The translations under genes were made by a program, and so were the position numbers. 64,000 nt of DNA from Candidatus Dormiibacterota bacterium (GTDB lineage: Bacteria > Chloroflexota > Dormibacteria > Aeolococcales > Aeolococcaceae). The stretch spans positions 960,328 to 1,024,327 of the forward strand of contig CAWCZS010000002.1 of NCBI GenBank assembly GCA_963800175.1, read 5' to 3'. Within the stretch, counting starts at the first letter, position 1. Each line of letters begins with the position of its first letter. The notes beneath the pieces were generated by a model, which was given only the letters and a program-made list of their open reading frames with translations, did not search any database and was not told where the DNA came from. Shown in pieces: positions 34,858 to 42,374 of this stretch.

Positions 34858-35123
34858 GGTCGCCTCCCGGCTGAGCTACTGCGGGTACGATCGCGATTGT
34901 AGCACAATATCGGGTATCGCTAGCTCCGGCAAGACTTGCGCTAGCGCCGCCACGAATCGTCGCTCCCGAGCGGCATCTCGGTTCGCGCGCGGTCGTGGCG
35001 TCGCGCTGACGGCTGGCCCTGGCAGACTCAGGGAATGATCGAGGCAACCTCATAGCCACGACCAGCGACGCCGCCCGCACCGCGGCGCCTGCGCGTGGGA
35101 CGCGCGGCGACGGGTACAAGTGG

Positions 35124-36790
35124 GTGGCGCTCTCCAACACGACGGTCGGCGTGCTGCTCGCCACCATCGACGCATCGATCATGTTGATCGCGATGCCGGA
35201 CATCTTTCGCGGCATCGATTTGAACCCGCTCGAACCGTCGAACAGCTTCTACCTGCTCTGGATGATTCTCGGCTTCCTCATCGTCAGCAGCGTGCTGGTG
35301 GTGGGGTTGGGACGGCTCGGCGACATCGTCGGTCGCGTGCGCATCTACAACCTCGGGTTCGTCATCTACACGGTCGCATCCTTGCTCCTGACGATCGACT
35401 GGATGACCGGGCCGCCAGGAGCGGTGTGGCTCATGGTCTTCCGAGTGGTCCAGGGCATCGGCGCCGCGTGCCTCATCGGCAACTCGGCGGCGATTCTCAC
35501 CGACGCATTCCCCGCCAACCAGCGTGGACTCGCGCTTGGCATCAACAACATCGCCGGTATCAGCGGCGTGTTCATCGGGCTGATTCTCGGCGGGCTGCTT
35601 GCTCCAATCAACTGGCGACTGGTGTTTCTCGTGTCGGTGCCGTTCGGTGTGTTCGGGACCGTCTGGGCGTACCTCAAGCTCGAGGAGCGTGGAGTCCGGC
35701 GGCGGGTTCCGATCGACTGGCTCGGCAACGTCACGTTCGCGATCGGTCTGATCCTGGTGATGATCGGCATCACGTACGGGATCGAGCCGTACGGATCCAA
35801 CCCGATGGGGTGGACAAGCCCGTTCGTGCTCAGCGCGCTCGTGCTCGGCGCAGGCATTCCTCGCGGGCTTTGCGGTGATCGAGGGTCGTGTGCCAAATCC
35901 CATGTTCCGTCTCGGGTTGTTTCGCATTCGCGCGTTCACGTTCGGCACGCTCTCGAGCTTTCTCGCGGCGGTCGGTCGTGGCGGACTGATGTTCATGCTG
36001 ATCATCTGGTTGCAGGGAATCTGGTTACCCGAGCACGGATACAGCTTCACGTCAACGCCGCTCTGGGCCGGCATCTACATGCTCCCGTTGACGGTCGGGT
36101 TCCTGCTCGCCGGCCCGGCATCGGGTTTCCTGTCGGACCGTTTCGGTTCCCGGCCATTCGCCACCGGCGGGATGATCGGCGCGGCCGCGAGCTTCCTGTT
36201 CCTGCAACTGCTGCCGATTGATTTTCCGTATCAGCTCTTCGCGCTGATTCTCTTCCTCAACGGCCTCTCGATGGGGGCCTTCGCATCACCAAACCGAGCT
36301 GGTGTCATGAACAGTCTTCCCCCCGGCGACCGTGGCGCCGGCGGCGGTATGAACGCCACGTTTCAGAGCTCGGCGCAAGTGCTCTCCATCGGCATCTTCT
36401 TCACGCTGATGATCCTTGGCCTGTCTGCGACACTCTCCACGACGATGACCGCAGGAACTCGAAGCGCACGGTGTTCCGGTCGTGGTCGCGCAGCATGTAG
36501 GCCACCTGCCGCCAGTGTCGATTCTCTTCGCGGCCTTCCTCGGATACAACCCGATCCAGACGCTGGTGGGCGCGCACGTGCTCTCGCAGCTGTCCGCCGC
36601 AAATGTCGCGGCGCTCACAGGGCGTCAGTTCTTCCCGACGCTCATCTCCGGCCCATTTGCCGCGGGCCTACACCAGGCGTTCACGTTCTCGCTGATCGTG
36701 TGCCTTGTGGCCGCGGTCGCCTCATGGTCTCGTGGCGGCCGTGTGGCTGCAGTGCAACCGATCATCGCGGCCGAAGCACCGGAGATCTGA
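35124..36790 (+). CDS. MFS transporter, DHA2/EmrB-like (14-TMS); frameshifts near 35860 and 36470; start may lie up to ~60 bp upstream
   Basis: Three ORF pieces (35124.., 35875..36873 frame, 36482..36790) tile one MFS protein. Motifs LIAMPDIFRGI and the WLMVFRVVQGIGAA...LTDAFP motif A region. Confidence 0.7.
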
Positions 36791-38946
36791 AGAGGAAACC
36801 TCAGGACGGAGTGCCGCCTGAAGGTTCTCGGGAGACCGGAGTTCAGCAGTTCACGGACGTGCTCGCGGAATGAGGCGGGCCCCTGTCGCCCGCTCCGTCG
36901 CCGGTTGCGGCGCGCGAACCACTCTCGCAGACCCACCGACGCGCCGCCAAACACCACCATCAAGACGAGCGTCGTCACCAGCGGCACGTTGTTGTGGCTG
37001 TCGTTGTGCGGAATCAGCAGGACTTCGATGACGCCGAACATCGCCAGCCCGAAGCATCCCAGCCACACGCCGCGATGCCACTGGCGCAGATCCCAGCCCG
37101 GAAGAAACCGTAACGGCAGCAGGCCGATCGCGCTGCCGACCAGCCCACTCACAAAGATCGCGGCAAGCAGGTCGTCGAGGATCACGAGACCGAAGAACGC
37201 GCCCGGCTGTTTCGCTGCACCGGTCACCGGCAGCCAGAGCAACCACGCGACGACGGCGACGCCCAGAGTGGTCAGCGAGCACAGCGCCACGATGTGCCCT
37301 TTCTGTGTCGTCGTCAGCTTCGTCGCAAACGCAACACCGCAAATCACGCCGTACAGATATCCGGGCTCGAACTGCGCAAGGCGCGAGATGAGCACGCATA
37401 TCGCCGCAACGCCGAGTCCGAGCGGCAACGCCTGAAGACGCCAGGAACGGCTTTCGTGACGTACGCGGTGATACTGGTAGGTGACGATCGCAGGGAATGT
37501 CGCGCCGAGACAGATTGCCAGCACGACAGCGACGTAGGTGTCGAGCGTCCCCACCGAGGTGCCGAAGTGCGGATCCAGCAAGCCGCCGAGCAGCGCTCCG
37601 ACGAGCACCACCAGAACAAACTTGATCCAGTCGGTGACCGATCGTCGCGACGTCTCAGATGTCTTCTTCGGCCGTATCGCCCATTTGACCTTGCGTTGCA
37701 GGAGCTCACGAATCTCCGCGTAGTTCTCCTCAAACGTCAGGTTGAAGAGTTGCGAAGGAAAGGTGATGAAGAGGATCGCGCCGATCGAAATCCCCGCGCC
37801 CACGGCCACGACCGCCGCAGATGCGAATGCCTCGTCGGGTGTCGGGAGCGACGTCGCGATCGTGGACAACGCCGTGCTTGCGCCGGTCTGCACGACGTAC
37901 AGGTAGCTGTCCTGCGCGGTGATGTCTATCGTGCCGTTTGATCCGTTGGCGATCGCGAAGAGCCCGCCGGAGCCGGCCGGCATGAAGAACATCGTCGCGG
38001 TCTGCGTGGCCGTGTTGTAGTACCCATACAGTCCCGGCAGATTCAACTGCGACCAGGCCATCCACATGCGGCCGTCCGCGCCGAGCACCATCGTCGTCGG
38101 GTTGTAGAAGTAATTCCATCTCAGCTGTTTCGCAACCGGCCCGGGCTCGATCTCGCCCACACCCCACGGTGTGGAGCCGTAGGAGAACCATGGCAGCCCG
38201 TTCGGACCCTCCGCGAGATCCTCTGCTCCGCCGTGCGGCCCGATCGCGAATTGATGCAGCACAGCACCCTCGGGGCTCAACTCCGTGACAGTGCGCCACG
38301 ATGTCGTGTTCGGAACGTCGTACCACGGGTTCGTCCATACCGTGCCGTCGGGCATGACCACGATGCTCGTCGCCGTCGCGTTGGCACCTGCAGGGAGGTT
38401 GTGCTCGGTGACGTGCCCGTTGCTGATCCTCCCGACCCGGTACGGCTTGGTCTCCGTAAACCAGATGTCACCATCCGGGGCACTCGCAATGGAGAGAAGA
38501 CCGCTGTTCGCCGTCGGTGGTTGGTAGGTCTGCAAACGACCGGTGGCGGGATCGAAGGAATCAACCTCCTGGTTGTTGTTGAAGAACCAGAGGTCCCCGT
38601 CGGGAGCGAGTGCGAGGCACTGCGTCGGTGGCGCGATGAGCGCGACTCCGCCGGGCACGGTATACGTGTGCACGGATCCGTCGGCGTCGACGTGAATGAG
38701 CGCCCATGAGCCGATGCGCTGGGCAAGGATCCAGGCGCTCCCGTCCGGCGCCGACGTGATGCACTCCGCCTCCATCTGCTCGGTCCCGAGGCGGATGCGT
38801 GTGATCGAACCCACGCCGGTCTTTGGCGCCGGCACGCCGGACGCGAACGCAGCGGCGGCGACCGCGCTCATGCAACCGACGGCGCACGCCAGTACTCCGG
38901 CCGCAAGCACACAACTCGCGAATCGTCCCCGCAAACTCCCGACCAT
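36625..38946 (-). CDS. Secreted Vgb/streptogramin-lyase-like beta-propeller fused to a C-terminal polytopic membrane domain
   Basis: Signal peptide. Repeated DG(D/S/T)(L/I/V)WF(T/F)(E/N) blades (DGDLWFFN, DGDIWFTE, DGTVWTN). About 8 TM helices follow from residue ~390. The 3' end overlaps the MFS gene by ~165 bp. Confidence 0.6.
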   Translation of the reverse strand: MVGSLRGRFASCVLAAGVLACAVGCMSAVAAAAFASGVPAPKTGVGSITRIRLGTEQMEAECITSAPDGSAWILAQRIGSWALIHVDADGSVHTYTVPGGVALIAPPTQCLALAPDGDLWFFNNNQEVDSFDPATGRLQTYQPPTANSGLLSIASAPDGDIWFTETKPYRVGRISNGHVTEHNLPAGANATATSIVVMPDGTVWTNPWYDVPNTTSWRTVTELSPEGAVLHQFAIGPHGGAEDLAEGPNGLPWFSYGSTPWGVGEIEPGPVAKQLRWNYFYNPTTMVLGADGRMWMAWSQLNLPGLYGYYNTATQTATMFFMPAGSGGLFAIANGSNGTIDITAQDSYLYVVQTGASTALSTIATSLPTPDEAFASAAVVAVGAGISIGAILFITFPSQLFNLTFEENYAEIRELLQRKVKWAIRPKKTSETSRRSVTDWIKFVLVVLVGALLGGLLDPHFGTSVGTLDTYVAVVLAICLGATFPAIVTYQYHRVRHESRSWRLQALPLGLGVAAICVLISRLAQFEPGYLYGVICGVAFATKLTTTQKGHIVALCSLTTLGVAVVAWLLWLPVTGAAKQPGAFFGLVILDDLLAAIFVSGLVGSAIGLLPLRFLPGWDLRQWHRGVWLGCFGLAMFGVIEVLLIPHNDSHNNVPLVTTLVLMVVFGGASVGLREWFARRNRRRSGRQGPASFREHVRELLNSGLPRTFRRHSVLRFPLQISGASAAMIGCTAATRPPRDHEATAATRHTISENVNAWCRPAANGPEMSVGKN

Positions 38947-39086
38947 CCGGCCTCCGCGCGATTACCCCTTGAACCGAGCGCACGCTCCCCGACGCCGATT
39001 CTTATAGCACACGGTGTTTGGTGCCATCAGCGGCGCGATGGCGATCCGGACGCGCTCGCCCCGGAGTCAGCGCAGCTGGATGGCGG

Positions 39087-40010
39087 TCAGTCGGCGACGC
39101 GCAGGAGGATCCGTCCGCGACCGTGGCCCGTCTCGGACGCGGTCTGCGCCTCGACTGCTTGATCGAGAGGAAACACTTGCTGGATCTCCGGTTTCAACGC
39201 TCCCGAGGCGACGAGCGCAGCCAGCTTTTCGAGATATGGGCTCGTCGCCGCGGGATGCCCGACCGCTTCTGTACGTACGCCGCGCTGTGCTGCGACGTCG
39301 GCGTCCGCCGAGCCGACGACCGTCACGAGGATGCCTCCCGGTTTGAGCGCGCTCCAGGACTGCGCGATGACCGTGCCGCCGACTGTGTCGAGCACCACGT
39401 CCACGTCGTGCACCGCGTCCTCGACATTCGTGGTCGTGTAGTCGATGACTTCATCCGCACCGAGCGAACGGACGAACTCGATGTTGGACGTTGATGTCGT
39501 TGCGATCACATATGCGCCTTTCCAGTGCGCCAGTTGCACGGCGAAGGAGCCGACACCGCCGGCGCCACCCTGCACGAGCACTCGCTGGCCTGCCTCGAGG
39601 TGGCCGGAGTCAAAGAGACCAAGCCACGCGGTCACACCGCCGACGTGCAGCGTCGCGGCCTGCTCGAATGAAACACCTTCTGGAATGTGGGCAATCGTGG
39701 TGACGGGCGCGACCGAATACTCGGCGTACGTTTGCGCTCCGCGGCCGAAAACTCTGTCGCCAACCTTGAAGTCGGTCACGCCTTCACCGACAGACGCGAC
39801 TGTCCCCGAGACGTCCAGTCCCGGCGAGTGCGGCAGCGTCACCGGCATGTACTGCTGCAGATAGCCGGCGCGCATCTTCCAGTCGATCGGGTTCACGCCG
39901 GCGTCGTGGACCTTGATGAGCACCTCGCCTGCTTTGGGCTCGGGGCGATCGACCTCGTCGACCACCAACACCGAAGCGGGACCGTAGCTGTGAAACCGGA
40001 CTGCGCGCAT
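39087..40010 (-). CDS. qor: NADPH:quinone oxidoreductase / zinc-type alcohol dehydrogenase-like (MDR superfamily)
   Basis: MRAVRFHSYGPASVLVVDEVDRPEPKAGEVLIKVHDAGVNPIDW and the cofactor-binding LVQGGAGGVGSFAVQLA. Confidence 0.8.
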   Translation of the reverse strand: MRAVRFHSYGPASVLVVDEVDRPEPKAGEVLIKVHDAGVNPIDWKMRAGYLQQYMPVTLPHSPGLDVSGTVASVGEGVTDFKVGDRVFGRGAQTYAEYSVAPVTTIAHIPEGVSFEQAATLHVGGVTAWLGLFDSGHLEAGQRVLVQGGAGGVGSFAVQLAHWKGAYVIATTSTSNIEFVRSLGADEVIDYTTTNVEDAVHDVDVVLDTVGGTVIAQSWSALKPGGILVTVVGSADADVAAQRGVRTEAVGHPAATSPYLEKLAALVASGALKPEIQQVFPLDQAVEAQTASETGHGRGRILLRVAD

Positions 40011-40178: not shown

Positions 40179-40612
40179 TCAAGCGCCGCGATGACAACAT
40201 ATCCGATGCAGGTACACGAGATTGACGTTCGACGGGTTGATGATGGCGGCGATGCCGAGACCGAGCTGCAAGAGGTAGATGGCGAACGTCGAGAGGAGCA
40301 CGGTGAGCTGCGACGCCTTCTCCTTTCTGAGCTGGCGGGTCAGCGTGATGTAGAAGCTCAGTGCGGCGAGAATGGCTGCGGGATAGCCGATGTTGGTCTG
40401 CGGAATCAGCGCGACAAGCGACAGGAAAAAGCTGTTGACCAGGCCGGTGAACGAGCTCTCGGCGAGCCGGCGCGCTTTCGGCGCCGCGTTGGGCCCGAAT
40501 ATCGATCGGGGCGCAGGCTGACGGCGACGAAGAGCAGCCCGATCAGCGCCCCCGCTGCCGCCGAGGTCGCGGCGAAGTAGCCGACGATGCCGCTCTGGGA
40601 CCATCGCCTACA
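40179..40612 (-). CDS. Small membrane protein (hypothetical), apparently frameshifted
   Basis: ORF 40179..40604 has hydrophobic helices ([30 protein letters not shown]...[16 protein letters not shown]). A TM segment in the adjacent frame ([13 protein letters not shown]) sits just downstream of the ATPase stop. Confidence 0.3.
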
Positions 40613-41371
40613 ACACCTTGGAAAGGAAGGCTTTCGTGCGTTCGTGCTGCGGATTGGCGAGCACCTCGCGCGGCGCGCCGCTTCGACGATCACGCCGCCG
40701 TCCATGAACACGAGCGCATCACCGACCTCGCGCGCGAATCCCATCTCGTGCGTGACGACGACCATGGTCATGCCGTCCTGCGCGAGCCCGCGCATCACGT
40801 CGAGAACGTCGCCGACGAGTTCCGGGTCGAGTGCTGACGTCGGCTCGTCAAACAGCATGAGCTTCGGCTGCATCGCAAGCGCACGTGCGATCGCCACCCG
40901 CTGCTGCTGACCACCGGAGAGCTGATTCGGATACACGTCCACCTTGTCCGCGAGCCCCACACGCCCGAGGAGTGAACGTCCGCGCTCTTCGGCAGCTTTC
41001 TGTTGCTCACCCTTCACGCGCACCGGCGCTTCCACGATGTTCTCGAGCGCGGTCATATGGGGAAACAGGTTGAAGCGCTGGAAGACCATGCCGATCTCGG
41101 CGCGTTTGCGGCAGACCTCGCGCTCCGGGAGCTCGTAGATCTTGCCATCGCGCTCGCGGTAGCCGACGAGCTCGCCGTCCACCGACAGCCTGCCGGCGTC
41201 AATCTTCTCGAGATGGTTGATGCATCGCAGGAACGTGCTTTTTCCGGAGCCTGAGGGCCCGACGATGCATAGCACCTCTCGCGGCGCCACCTCGAGGTCG
41301 ATGCCGCGGAGAACATCGAGGCGCCCGTAGCTCTTATAGACAGCTTCGGCCAGAACCATGGGGATCGGCAT
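40604..41371 (-). CDS. Polar amino-acid ABC ATP-binding protein (GlnQ/HisP-like); frameshift near 40670 at the C-terminus
   Basis: Walker [10 protein letters not shown], signature [16 protein letters not shown], Walker [11 protein letters not shown]. The true C-terminus [23 protein letters not shown] is recovered in the adjacent frame. Confidence 0.8.
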
Positions 41372-41381
41372 CAGCGGCTTC

Positions 41382-42374
41382 CTAGGTGTGCCGCGTGTAG
41401 ATCGCGACCGCCTCGGAGGGCGCTGTCGGCACATCGATATGAGCATGGAACAGCATCCGGCGAAAGCGCTGGATCGGGGTGAGCGGCAACTGGCGTGCCG
41501 AACCGCGCGCGAAGTACCGCTCGAGATAGTACTGCCCGAAGGTAAGGATGGAGGTCATGACCAGGTACCAGACGCTAGCGACGATCAGTAGCTCGACGAT
41601 GCGGAAGTTCGCGTTCGAGATCTCGGTCTGGACGTAGAACAGTTCGGCGACGGTGGTGATGTATGCGAGGGACGACGTTTTGAGCATTGAGATTGTCTCG
41701 TTGCCCGTTGGCGGCAGGATGACGCGCATCGCTTGAGGCAGCACGATTCTGCGCATCACGCCGATCCGCGTCATGCCCAGCGCCTGCGCCGCCTCGGTCT
41801 GCCCGTGATCCACGGAGATGATCCCGGCTCGGACCACCTCGGACATGTAGGCGGCCTCGTTGAGTCCCAGGCCGAGGATTGCCGCGAGAAACGGGGAGAC
41901 GATCTGATTGGTCGTGCCCACCCATTCGATGTTGGTGAAGGGAATCCCGATCGAGAGATGCGGCAGGATGAGCGCGATGTTGTACCAGAAGAACAGTTGC
42001 ACGAGTACGGGCGTGCCGCGAAAAAACCAGATGTAGAACCAGCTGAGGGTTGACACGACGGGGTTGACGGAAAGACGCATCACCGCGAGGATGACGCCGA
42101 GGATCCCGCCGATTGCCATCGCAATGACCGTGAGCTCGAGTGTGACGACGATCCCACGCAGAATCTCGGGAAAGAACAGATACTGCTCGACGACACGCCA
42201 ATCGAGGGCGGGCGCCGCGGCGAACGTGTAGACCGCTTCTGCGGCAATGGCAAGGACAACAACGGCGGCAACCCATCGCCATGGATGGCGGAGCGGGATA
42301 GCCTTGATCGCCGCGGGTCGTGCCGGCGGCGGTTCGAACGGCTGACCGGTCCGCGTCTCGGTGCCGACGTTCAC
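41382..42374 (-). CDS. Polar amino-acid ABC permease (HisM/GlnP family)
   Basis: Clean 330-aa ORF. EAA-type motif [25 protein letters not shown]. Multi-TM. Confidence 0.85.

Follow-up and report, generated by a model that had tools for sequence, protein, structure and literature searches.

The window, i.e., the whole stretch of 64,000 nucleotides of DNA that was analysed, carries on its minus strand an open reading frame which is confirmed as a real gene, encoding a Sec signal peptide and a seven-bladed β-propeller, followed at the C-terminus by a polytopic membrane domain. This gene faces a convergent gene of the MFS type located on the plus strand. The features of the locus are listed below, together with the data from which they were read (AF2, AlphaFold2; L001 and L086, loci of two relatives).

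36625..38946, minus strand: open reading frame of 773 aa as sequenced, starting at ATG.
36801..38946, minus strand: corrected coding sequence of 714 aa, obtained by removing one base near 36842-36843, with the native stop TGA at 36803..36801.
38951..38955, minus strand: Shine-Dalgarno-like GGAGG, 4 nt 5' of the ATG, read from the sequence.
38842..38946, minus strand: signal peptide, aa 1-35 (hydropathy, N-termini aligning with those of homologues, AF2 N-terminal helix aa 5-27).
37879..38811, minus strand: seven-bladed β-propeller, aa 46-356 (PF24684, phmmer matches in the PDB, AF2 strands, Foldseek, catalytic-residue mapping).
37825..37878, minus strand: linker of conserved sequence STIAxSLPTPxEAFAS (aa 357-374), connecting the propeller with TM1.
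36928..37851, minus strand: FGLLP-motif membrane domain (NF041501, 'cola_mem'), aa 366-673 (HMM, AF2, hydropathy, positive-inside reading).
37327..37434, minus strand: re-entrant hairpin, aa 505-540, which bears SRLxxFxPGYLYG, the best conserved of the family's motifs.
37096..37128, minus strand: name-giving motif IGLLPLRFLPG, aa 607-617, in the cytoplasmic loop after TM6.
36837..36847, minus strand: frameshift site with a net gain of one base, CTGCTGAACTCC (blastn indels against L001 and L086, codon-by-codon reading).
36625..36843, minus strand: spurious tail of 72 codons plus stop, which reads the 3' end of the MFS gene in antisense.
35124..36790, plus strand: convergent DHA2-like MFS gene, broken up into three frames by a 1-nt insertion at each of ~35852 and ~36456 relative to L001 and L086.

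No promoter or terminator signal exceeding the shuffled expectation emerged from a scan of 36500-39300, and the PADLOC and PHROGs libraries of defence and phage functions returned no matches.

In the sequence as given, the open reading frame overlaps the last ORF of the MFS frame (36482..36790, plus strand) by 166 nt, an overlap which an earlier note on this DNA attributed either to a real antisense arrangement or to the loss of a stop codon. In alignment A1, the 773-aa product departs from all 14 homologues after ...FREHVRELL, and the 72-residue tail that follows occurs in a single member (P0208, the window's own protein) of the ten that make up the 90% cluster, all nine others having kept the short tail. 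The alternate frame reads TPVSREPSGGTPS followed by a stop, as at the C-termini of P0001 and of eight further members of the cluster, so that deletion of one base gives back both the conserved tail and its stop. The same base is absent from two independent relatives, the syntenic L001, where the 714-aa orthologue ends 3 nt before an intact MFS gene of 554 aa, and L086, which is 97.7% identical by blastn. About 22 coding single-nt indels separate the window from L001 over ~19 kb, i.e., about one per kb of coding sequence, and frameshifting indels also affect the enolase, ABC, SDR and aldehyde dehydrogenase genes, two more being located in the MFS gene. Judged from these sequence comparisons, the 166-nt overlap and the 59 extra residues are an artefact produced by a single superfluous base near 36842 in an error-prone assembly. 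The +1 frameshift created the 72 terminal residues and thereby the overlap as well, and the corrected 714-aa gene is separated from the MFS stop by a gap of 10 nt. The frame is open down to 36625 in the given sequence and an identical 773-aa protein is on record from a contig of 2.7 Mb; nevertheless, the uniqueness of the tail, its repair by a one-base deletion, the lack of the base in both relatives and the other frameshifts of the window make it very unlikely that the longer product and its antisense overlap are genuine features of the organism. Of the two explanations offered previously, the artefact was the right one, its cause being a 1-nt insertion instead of the point loss of a stop. 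The extra base could also be a real variant, in which case the overlap would still not be functional. The intact MFS orthologue (L001:12149-13813, 554 aa) finds its best model in TIGR00711 (DHA2), with 159.5 bits for a cutoff of 230.2. The other ORFs of the window are frameshift-ridden as well and should be read with caution.

The N-terminal part of the protein corresponds to what had been anticipated, namely a signal peptide followed by a propeller resembling virginiamycin B lyase (Vgb). Hydropathy delineates a hydrophobic segment at aa 7-35, with a core at aa 7-33, and cleavage is likely to occur after AFA. A lipoprotein reading of the segment (AVGC) was rejected, position -3 being occupied by Ala and the Cys being variable among the homologues. 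AlphaFold2 predicts seven four-stranded blades over aa ~46-356 with a pLDDT of ~80-90. The Pfam family Vgb_lyase (PF24684) matches aa 48-205 with 82.5 bits and an E-value of 3e-23, above the gathering threshold of 50, phmmer against the PDB sequences recovers 2qc5 and 2z2n, and Vgb is the closest solved fold, the best Foldseek matches being 2z2o, 2z2p and 2qc5 (target TM 0.79-0.84, identity 18-20%, rmsd of superposition 3.3-3.7 Å). Pfam also gives a weak Reg_prop match. The canonical repeat of the DGxxWFTE type, which had been described as recurring along the propeller, is indeed present, but is confined to blades 2-3. Moreover, a single blade of the query matches every Vgb blade in turn, the similarity being that of the blade repeat. 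When the diverse profile A2 was compared with the PDB sequences at E <= 1, every match fell within the propeller and none in the membrane domain.

With respect to function, the Pfam match, the Vgb fold and the adjoining DHA2-type efflux gene might together evoke a membrane-tethered streptogramin B lyase conferring antibiotic resistance, a role that had been considered for this protein. The NCBIfam equivalog models for Vgb(A) and Vgb(B) yield, however, 59.9 and 43.6 bits for a cutoff of 600, and the PF24684 match is limited to profile positions 3-154 of 290, in addition to the one-blade-to-all similarity mentioned above. Vgb is a cytoplasmic Mg2+-dependent enzyme, and its sequence is devoid of a signal peptide, whereas the present domain is exported. 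The gene neighbourhoods also vary among the homologues. In the numbering of S. aureus Vgb, the active-site and Mg2+-binding set comprises H228, E268, H270, E284 and Y18, and H270 fits the PDB entry 2Z2P ('catalytically inactive H270A'). Upon addition of Vgb(A) to the alignment with MAFFT, at ~20% identity, Y18 falls on E61, H228 on F330 and E268 on T358, and both H270 and E284 face gaps in the query, whereas a manual one-to-one register of the blades leads to T282, G327, F330 and Q345; this mapping, which is not fully collinear, is to be taken as indicative and not as definitive. The corresponding family columns are variable and His occurs in none of them, so that none of the five residues is identical or family-conserved. 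Since the Vgb catalytic residues are lacking, the propeller is indicated not to be a streptogramin lyase, and a resistance function of this kind appears extremely improbable. The labels "virginiamycin B lyase" or "streptogramin lyase" that such proteins receive in metagenomes should not be taken to denote resistance genes.

The linker that follows the propeller is built around invariant residues (S361, L367, P368, P370 and F374 in alignments A1 and A4), and L367 and P370 are conserved family-wide in 89% and 94% of the sequences, respectively. The C-terminal part is polytopic, as had been claimed, with eight hydrophobic segments distributed within aa 372-675 according to hydropathy. The count of eight transmembrane helices deduced from them holds for the number of segments but less so for their nature: as judged by hydropathy and the positive-inside rule, together with a single AF2 model (pLDDT 80, pTM 0.78 for the membrane domain; the membrane part of the full-length model is of low confidence), the domain is better described as seven predicted TM helices plus one re-entrant hairpin on the cytoplasmic side, in an N-out/C-in orientation. 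In the AF2 model the hairpin consists of a short helix, aa 509-523, inserted between the paired strands 502-506 and 536-540. Its residues S521, R522, F526, P528, G529, Y530, Y532 and G533 are each conserved in at least 97% of 157 family sequences, and P611 and G617 of the name-giving motif reach 100% in the same set, I607 and L609-L615 being invariant in the subfamily. The motif reads IGLLP in place of FGLLP, both forms fitting the pattern (F/I)GLLP taken as a mark of the family.

For the membrane domain, Foldseek against the PDB gave no fold match (best E-value 0.38), Pfam has no model, and six diverse membrane domains of the family searched at E <= 10 gave scattered and inconsistent DUF matches. 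The JGI label "F0F1 ATP synthase assembly protein I" is devoid of Pfam support and was discarded. A match to Rh50/Amt obtained with the narrower profile A4 (E-value 7e-4) was likewise rejected as a match of hydrophobic composition, being lost with the diverse profile A2. Comparison of the two halves of the domain with hhalign showed no significant internal repeat (probability 8.5%), with a weak similarity of the parallel-hairpin type and no inverted-repeat symmetry.

The domain belongs, however, to a curated family and not to an unknown one, as had been supposed. The NCBIfam model NF041501, "FGLLP motif-containing membrane protein", scores 204.8 bits (E-value 1.5e-60, cutoff 150) over aa 366-673, which cover model positions 1-311 of 312, and the NCBI already gives this name to a homologue of the same architecture (P0008). 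The family comprises 1,886 representative clusters at 50% identity, distributed among the Dormibacterota, Actinomycetota and Chloroflexota, and proteins of other architectures also exceed the NF041501 cutoff. The domain nearly always occupies the C-terminus: among 156 representatives in which it is complete, the median length is 278 aa for the region that precedes it and 21.5 aa for the tail that follows. The N-terminal heads are very often propellers and include Vgb-like, BNR/Ycf48-like, YncE/lactonase, SGL, RCC1, NHL, LamG_3 and DUF642 modules. Several paralogues per genome occur in the Dormibacterota, Acidimicrobiales, Chloroflexia and other groups. The fusion of a propeller to the membrane domain, which had been regarded as uncommon, is therefore an ordinary arrangement, the domain standing almost always behind a variable extracytoplasmic module. 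Its encoding by a single gene was rightly recognized: at least 18 homologue clusters span both halves in the same architecture, the halves are undivided by a stop in 18 of 18 of them, and the SLPTP linker is conserved. The protein is thus an ordinary member of the catalogued soil-bacterial family NF041501, with which it shares the full-model match and the position of the domain, C-terminal to a variable exported head, the only difference being IGLLP instead of FGLLP. A literature search on the NF041501, cola_mem or FGLLP family found no relevant work, and no partner gene was found among the ORFs clustered from 80 loci (best neighbour present in 9 of 80) nor in four contexts that were read.

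Some well-known proteins offer points of comparison. Vgb (PDB codes 2Z2N, 2Z2O, 2Z2P and 2QC5; PF24684) shares with the present protein the seven-bladed propeller and the DGxxWFTE-type repeat, but is soluble and cytoplasmic, whereas here the propeller is exported, tethered to the membrane and fused to a membrane domain of 320 aa. The Reg_prop modules of the Bacteroides hybrid two-component proteins BT4663/BT4673 (PDB codes 3OTT, 3VA6 and 4A2L) and the NHL domain of PknD from M. tuberculosis (PDB code 1RWI), whose structures occur among the sequence and fold matches of the propeller, similarly consist of an exported propeller joined to a membrane-spanning part. However, these proteins possess one or a few TM helices and a kinase or regulator output, in contrast to the conserved 7-TM module without output domain found here, and their homology to the present protein is limited to the propeller.

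Taken as a whole, the locus, from a Candidatus Dormibacterota-like genome, would encode a 714-aa NF041501 envelope protein associating an exported, non-lyase propeller with a conserved membrane transducer, the overlap being artefactual, a reading that we hold somewhat better than even. The Sec-type signal peptide would export the Vgb-fold seven-bladed propeller to the outer side of the cytoplasmic membrane, where the SLPTP linker would join it to the ~320-aa membrane domain with its hairpin entering from the cytoplasmic side, the short Arg-rich tail being presumably located in the cytoplasm. The propeller would serve as a module binding a ligand or a partner, and would belong to a large set of exchangeable heads of the propeller or lectin-like type in the family. 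Since strict conservation is found at three places, namely the end of TM1 that faces the cytoplasm, the SRLxxFxPGYLYG hairpin and the GLLPLRFLPG loop on the cytoplasmic side, the membrane domain is read as a putative transducer, more than an anchor, that may relay binding outside to the membrane core or the cytoplasmic face, either by signalling to an unlinked partner or by gating or transferring a substrate. In this respect, the putative binding module attached to a sensor or channel that was suggested earlier is plausible, even though the classical sensor model is weakened because the protein contains no cytoplasmic output domain.

This lack of an output domain, together with that of a conserved partner gene, is also what would be expected if the polytopic domain were a mere anchor, deprived of own activity and serving to present exchangeable heads, for binding or catalysis, at the surface of monoderm cells. 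The high variability of the heads on a constant C-terminal module, as well as invariant residues without a catalytic-looking His/Asp/Glu set, point in the same direction. One TM helix would nevertheless suffice as an anchor, and a domain of ~320 aa that retains 40-50% identity from one phylum to another, as well as more than 20 near-invariant residues, among which a buried Ser-Arg pair and the PGYxYG re-entrant loop, is constrained far beyond the needs of anchoring, which leaves a mere anchor rather unlikely. Channels and transporters typically contain re-entrant hairpins in which small or aromatic residues are strictly conserved. Such a hairpin, together with a near-invariant Arg (99% conserved) in the membrane region and with heads that often adopt lectin- or glycosidase-like folds (LamG_3, DUF642, BNR), would suit a channel, a transporter or an enzyme acting on lipid-linked substrates, for which the propeller captures or positions an extracellular substrate, e.g., a glycan or an envelope polymer. 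Against this stand the lack of any fold or sequence match to a transporter, a channel or an enzyme of the GT-C/UppP type, the vanishing of the Rh50/Amt match, and the missing inverted-repeat symmetry, and such a function is regarded as improbable to a similar degree. Returning to the transducer, its extension to the whole family, according to which FGLLP/cola_mem would represent an undescribed 7-TM transducer or translocator of monoderm soil phyla, coupling interchangeable propeller or lectin heads to a cytoplasmic or intramembrane process, is put forward tentatively.

For the window itself, the finding is of little weight, the protein being a routine member of a family already named by the NCBI and the overlap a sequencing artefact. 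The family is more deserving of attention: it counts ~1,900 clusters, in soil phyla that have been little studied, and associates a membrane module under strong conservation with surface heads that can be exchanged. Working out the role of this module would provide an annotation for thousands of envelope proteins in the Dormibacterota, Acidimicrobiia and Chloroflexota.

The gene studied and the transporter gene that faces it are arranged as follows in the window:

36625..38946, minus strand: propeller-membrane ORF, 773 aa, starting with ATG (ORF listing)
35124-36790, plus strand: convergent DHA2-like MFS gene, running through three reading frames (35124.., 35875.. and 36482..36790 in the ORF listing) via two 1-nt insertions at ~35852 and ~36456

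The ATG of the propeller-membrane ORF is preceded, at a distance of 4 nt, by a GGAGG motif, and hydropathy reveals an N-terminal hydrophobic segment (aa 7-35) and eight more hydrophobic segments between aa 372 and 675 of the 773-aa protein. The Pfam family PF24684 (Vgb_lyase) matches aa 48-205 (E 3e-23, 82.5 bits, cutoff 50).

The fusion of the propeller to the membrane domain is genuine. Eighteen homologue clusters (P0001-P0018, 43-94% identity) span both halves, their alignments share an invariant junction linker (S361...L367, P368, P370...F374), and none contains the stop between the two halves that, according to the earlier note, would have marked two separate genes. The membrane domain, previously assigned to an unknown family, is matched end to end (aa 366-673) by NCBIfam NF041501 (cola_mem, "FGLLP motif-containing membrane protein") with 204.8 bits for a cutoff of 150, and NCBI gives the same family name to P0008, a homologue from a Candidatus Dormibacteria MAG. 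Searches for a Pfam family matching this domain, for a PDB sequence relative and for literature on NF041501 or the FGLLP membrane domain yielded nothing.

A HMMER scan with the membrane domain alone over 1.84 billion cluster representatives retrieved 1,886 proteins at E <= 1e-3, including 485 at E <= 1e-30. The domain is C-terminal in the 156 representatives that contain it completely, with a median of 21.5 aa beyond it and a variable region ahead of it (median 278 aa, maximum 1,011 aa); a signal-like hydrophobic segment occurs at the start of 110 of the 140 longer representatives. The heads are modular across this large family: among 71 members surveyed with Pfam, Vgb_lyase and PSII_BNR/Ycf48-like heads occur in 6 each, lactonase/YncE, SGL and sortilin-BNR heads in 5 each, RCC1 and Laminin_G_3 heads in 4 each, and NHL, LDL-receptor class B, DUF642, PMP repeats and others in fewer. 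A propeller joined to the membrane module, regarded earlier as an uncommon fusion, is the rule within NF041501. A scan of species-representative genomes picked up 255 relatives, the best 80 of which belong to Dormibacterota, Acidimicrobiales, Acidothermaceae, Frankiaceae, Chloroflexia and Saccharimonadales MAGs, frequently with 2-4 copies per genome; the window contains one. The window gene is a new member of this named but uncharacterised family and possesses its standard architecture.

The predicted fold of the propeller is Vgb-like, Vgb being the virginiamycin/streptogramin B lyase. An AlphaFold2 model built from an 18-sequence alignment consists of seven four-stranded blades (aa ~46-356, block pLDDT mostly 75-92), and the top-ranked PDB matches in Foldseek are the Vgb structures 2z2o, 2z2p, 2qc5 and 2z2n (E 3e-15 to 3e-13, target TM 0.79-0.84, rmsd 3.3-3.7 A, identity 18-20%). 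The sequence similarity is of the repeat level, the family's best-conserved blade (profile positions ~139-187) matching every Vgb blade in turn. The window protein reaches 59.9 bits with the NCBIfam Vgb(A) model and 43.6 bits with the Vgb(B) model, where the cutoff is 600 in each case. Residues Y18, H228, E268, H270 and E284, all present in the reference vgb(A) gene taken from an Enterococcus plasmid, map to E61, F330, T358 and gaps when that sequence is added to the family alignment, where the columns at the catalytic positions are variable and never His. As this alignment skipped one blade, a one-to-one blade register was also made by eye; it places T282, G327, F330 and Q345 at the Vgb positions, again without the His/Glu set. 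Vgb is a cytoplasmic Mg2+ enzyme whose sequence lacks a signal peptide, whereas the propeller of the window protein follows one. Owing to the sub-cutoff scores, the missing catalytic residues and the signal peptide, it is concluded that the window protein is not a streptogramin lyase; the lyase role suggested earlier is highly improbable, and the propeller is most likely a binding module. The JGI labels "virginiamycin B lyase", "streptogramin lyase" and "F0F1-type ATP synthase assembly protein I" carried by the cluster members P0003, P0203 and P0206, by P0002 and P0005-P0007, and by others, are supported neither by model scores nor by residue checks. Two nearly invariant cysteines of the subfamily, C62 (38761-38763) and C110 (38617-38619), occupy equivalent inner-strand positions in blades 1 and 2. 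A disulfide between them is conceivable and would agree with a site outside the cytoplasm.

The membrane domain was modelled with AlphaFold2 from a 31-sequence alignment (pLDDT 80, pTM 0.78) and comprises the following elements:

aa 377-407: TM1 with a juxtamembrane extension
aa 409-421: amphipathic helix
aa 432-456: TM2
aa 466-495: TM3
aa 509-523: short helix, with flanking paired strands at aa 502-506 and 536-540
aa 546-578, 585-608, 625-644 and 654-685: remaining helices

From the distribution of Arg and Lys, loops 398-440, 490-504 and 609-624 and the tail from 674 would be cytoplasmic. Since both its ends lie on that side, segment 505-540 is read as a re-entrant hairpin, and the predicted topology consists of seven TM helices and this hairpin, N-out and C-in. 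Conservation over 157 diverse sequences concentrates in three places, namely the cytoplasmic end of TM1 with the residues that follow it (F396, P397, F401, N402, T404, N408, I412), the hairpin (A506, G510, L511, V518, S521, R522, F526, P528, G529, Y530, Y532 and G533, each at least 95%) and the loop after TM6 (P611, G617, W623, W628); not one invariant His, Asp or Glu is shared by these sequences. A faint, non-significant hint of a possible internal duplication links TM2-TM3 (aa 435-501) to TM7-TM8 (aa 622-687; window 36886-37644; hhalign probability 8.5%, E 0.004).

The overlap between the propeller-membrane ORF and the MFS gene, reported in the earlier note, is literally there in the uncorrected sequence, where it covers 166 nt of the last MFS frame (36482..36790). 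In an alignment with 14 homologues all proteins agree through ...FREHVRELL (aa 701), past which the window protein alone runs on for 72 residues more. Its next frame after the divergence point reads TPVSREPSGGTPS followed by a stop, and P0001, 94% identical, ends in TPVSREPSGGSPS. Deletion of one A from the window codons CTG CTG AAC TCC gives CTG CTG ACT CCG GTC TCC CGA GAA CCT TCA GGC GGC ACT CCG TCC TGA, with the stop restored at 36803..36801 (minus) and a protein of 714 aa, the length of P0001. The short ...ELLTP(V/A)... tail occurs in 9 of the 9 other members of the 90% cluster of the window protein; the window protein itself has the same sequence as P0208, which lies on a contig of 2.70 Mb. 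On L001, the contig of P0001 (a Candidatus Dormibacteraeota MAG, syntenic with the window at 92.6% identity over 21 kb), 3 nt separate the end of the 714-aa gene from an intact 554-aa MFS gene, and comparison with a second independent relative, the JGI contig L086 (97.7% identical), again puts a net +1 in the window at 36837-36842. With the corrected stop the convergent genes lie 10 nt apart (36791-36800) and the overlap disappears. Removal of a single base restores the tail and the stop of the homologues, and the overlap is a frameshift artefact of an indel-rich assembly rather than a real antisense overlap. A terminator-like hairpin was looked for around this gap and not found.

A listing of all indels between the window and L001 comprises ~22 single-base indels inside coding regions over ~19 kb, the majority being insertions in the window and the majority lying outside homopolymers. 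They affect the enolase, M20 peptidase, SDR, aldehyde dehydrogenase, solute-binding and ABC protein genes, the MFS gene (twice) and the propeller-membrane gene (once). Examples within 28000-49000 occur at ~48579, 47155, 46629, 45252, 43517, 43006, 42651, 40677, 36456, 35852 and 33466; L086 likewise lacks the extra T at 36456. With ~1 frameshifting indel per kb of coding sequence relative to L001, ORF calls are unreliable throughout the window, e.g., ORF 40406..41446, a fusion of an ABC ATPase with the gene that follows it. Related MAGs are Nanopore-only, Medaka-polished assemblies (PMC12313526), and the window probably derives from the same kind of assembly. Two other differences were observed. 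The window (~34951-34961) lacks a 1.2-kb segment of L001 (13977-15208), a presence/absence difference between the genomes; the segment carries one MFS_3-like gene (253 aa) and one hypothetical gene (143 aa). In L086 (~519), 10 nt are missing inside the signal-peptide coding region (window 38853-38862), either as a real variant or as an assembly error, so that its gene call starts later (691 aa).

The window and L001 agree in placing the gene behind a quinone-oxidoreductase-type ADH gene, with the convergent MFS gene on its other side; the neighbours are wholly different in three other homologues. Clustering of all flanking ORFs gave a commonest recurrent neighbour at 9 of 80 loci and no partner gene, PADLOC and PHROGs gave no match, and in its genomic context the gene stands on its own.

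The exported propeller would bind an external ligand or an envelope component, and the membrane module would do more than anchor it. A plain anchor is unlikely, because both the 40-50% identity across phyla and the near-invariant Ser-Arg...Pro-Gly-Tyr-x-Tyr-Gly hairpin exceed anchoring needs; a transport, channel or lipid-linked-substrate role is given the same low probability. A transducer is tentatively favoured, short of an even chance, because the conserved face of the module would be cytoplasmic or intramembrane; no output domain was found in the protein, and the rest of the probability is reserved for roles beyond these three. The locus itself is of low interest, its overlap being artefactual and its architecture standard for NF041501, but the family as a whole would be a sensible object of further structural and functional study.
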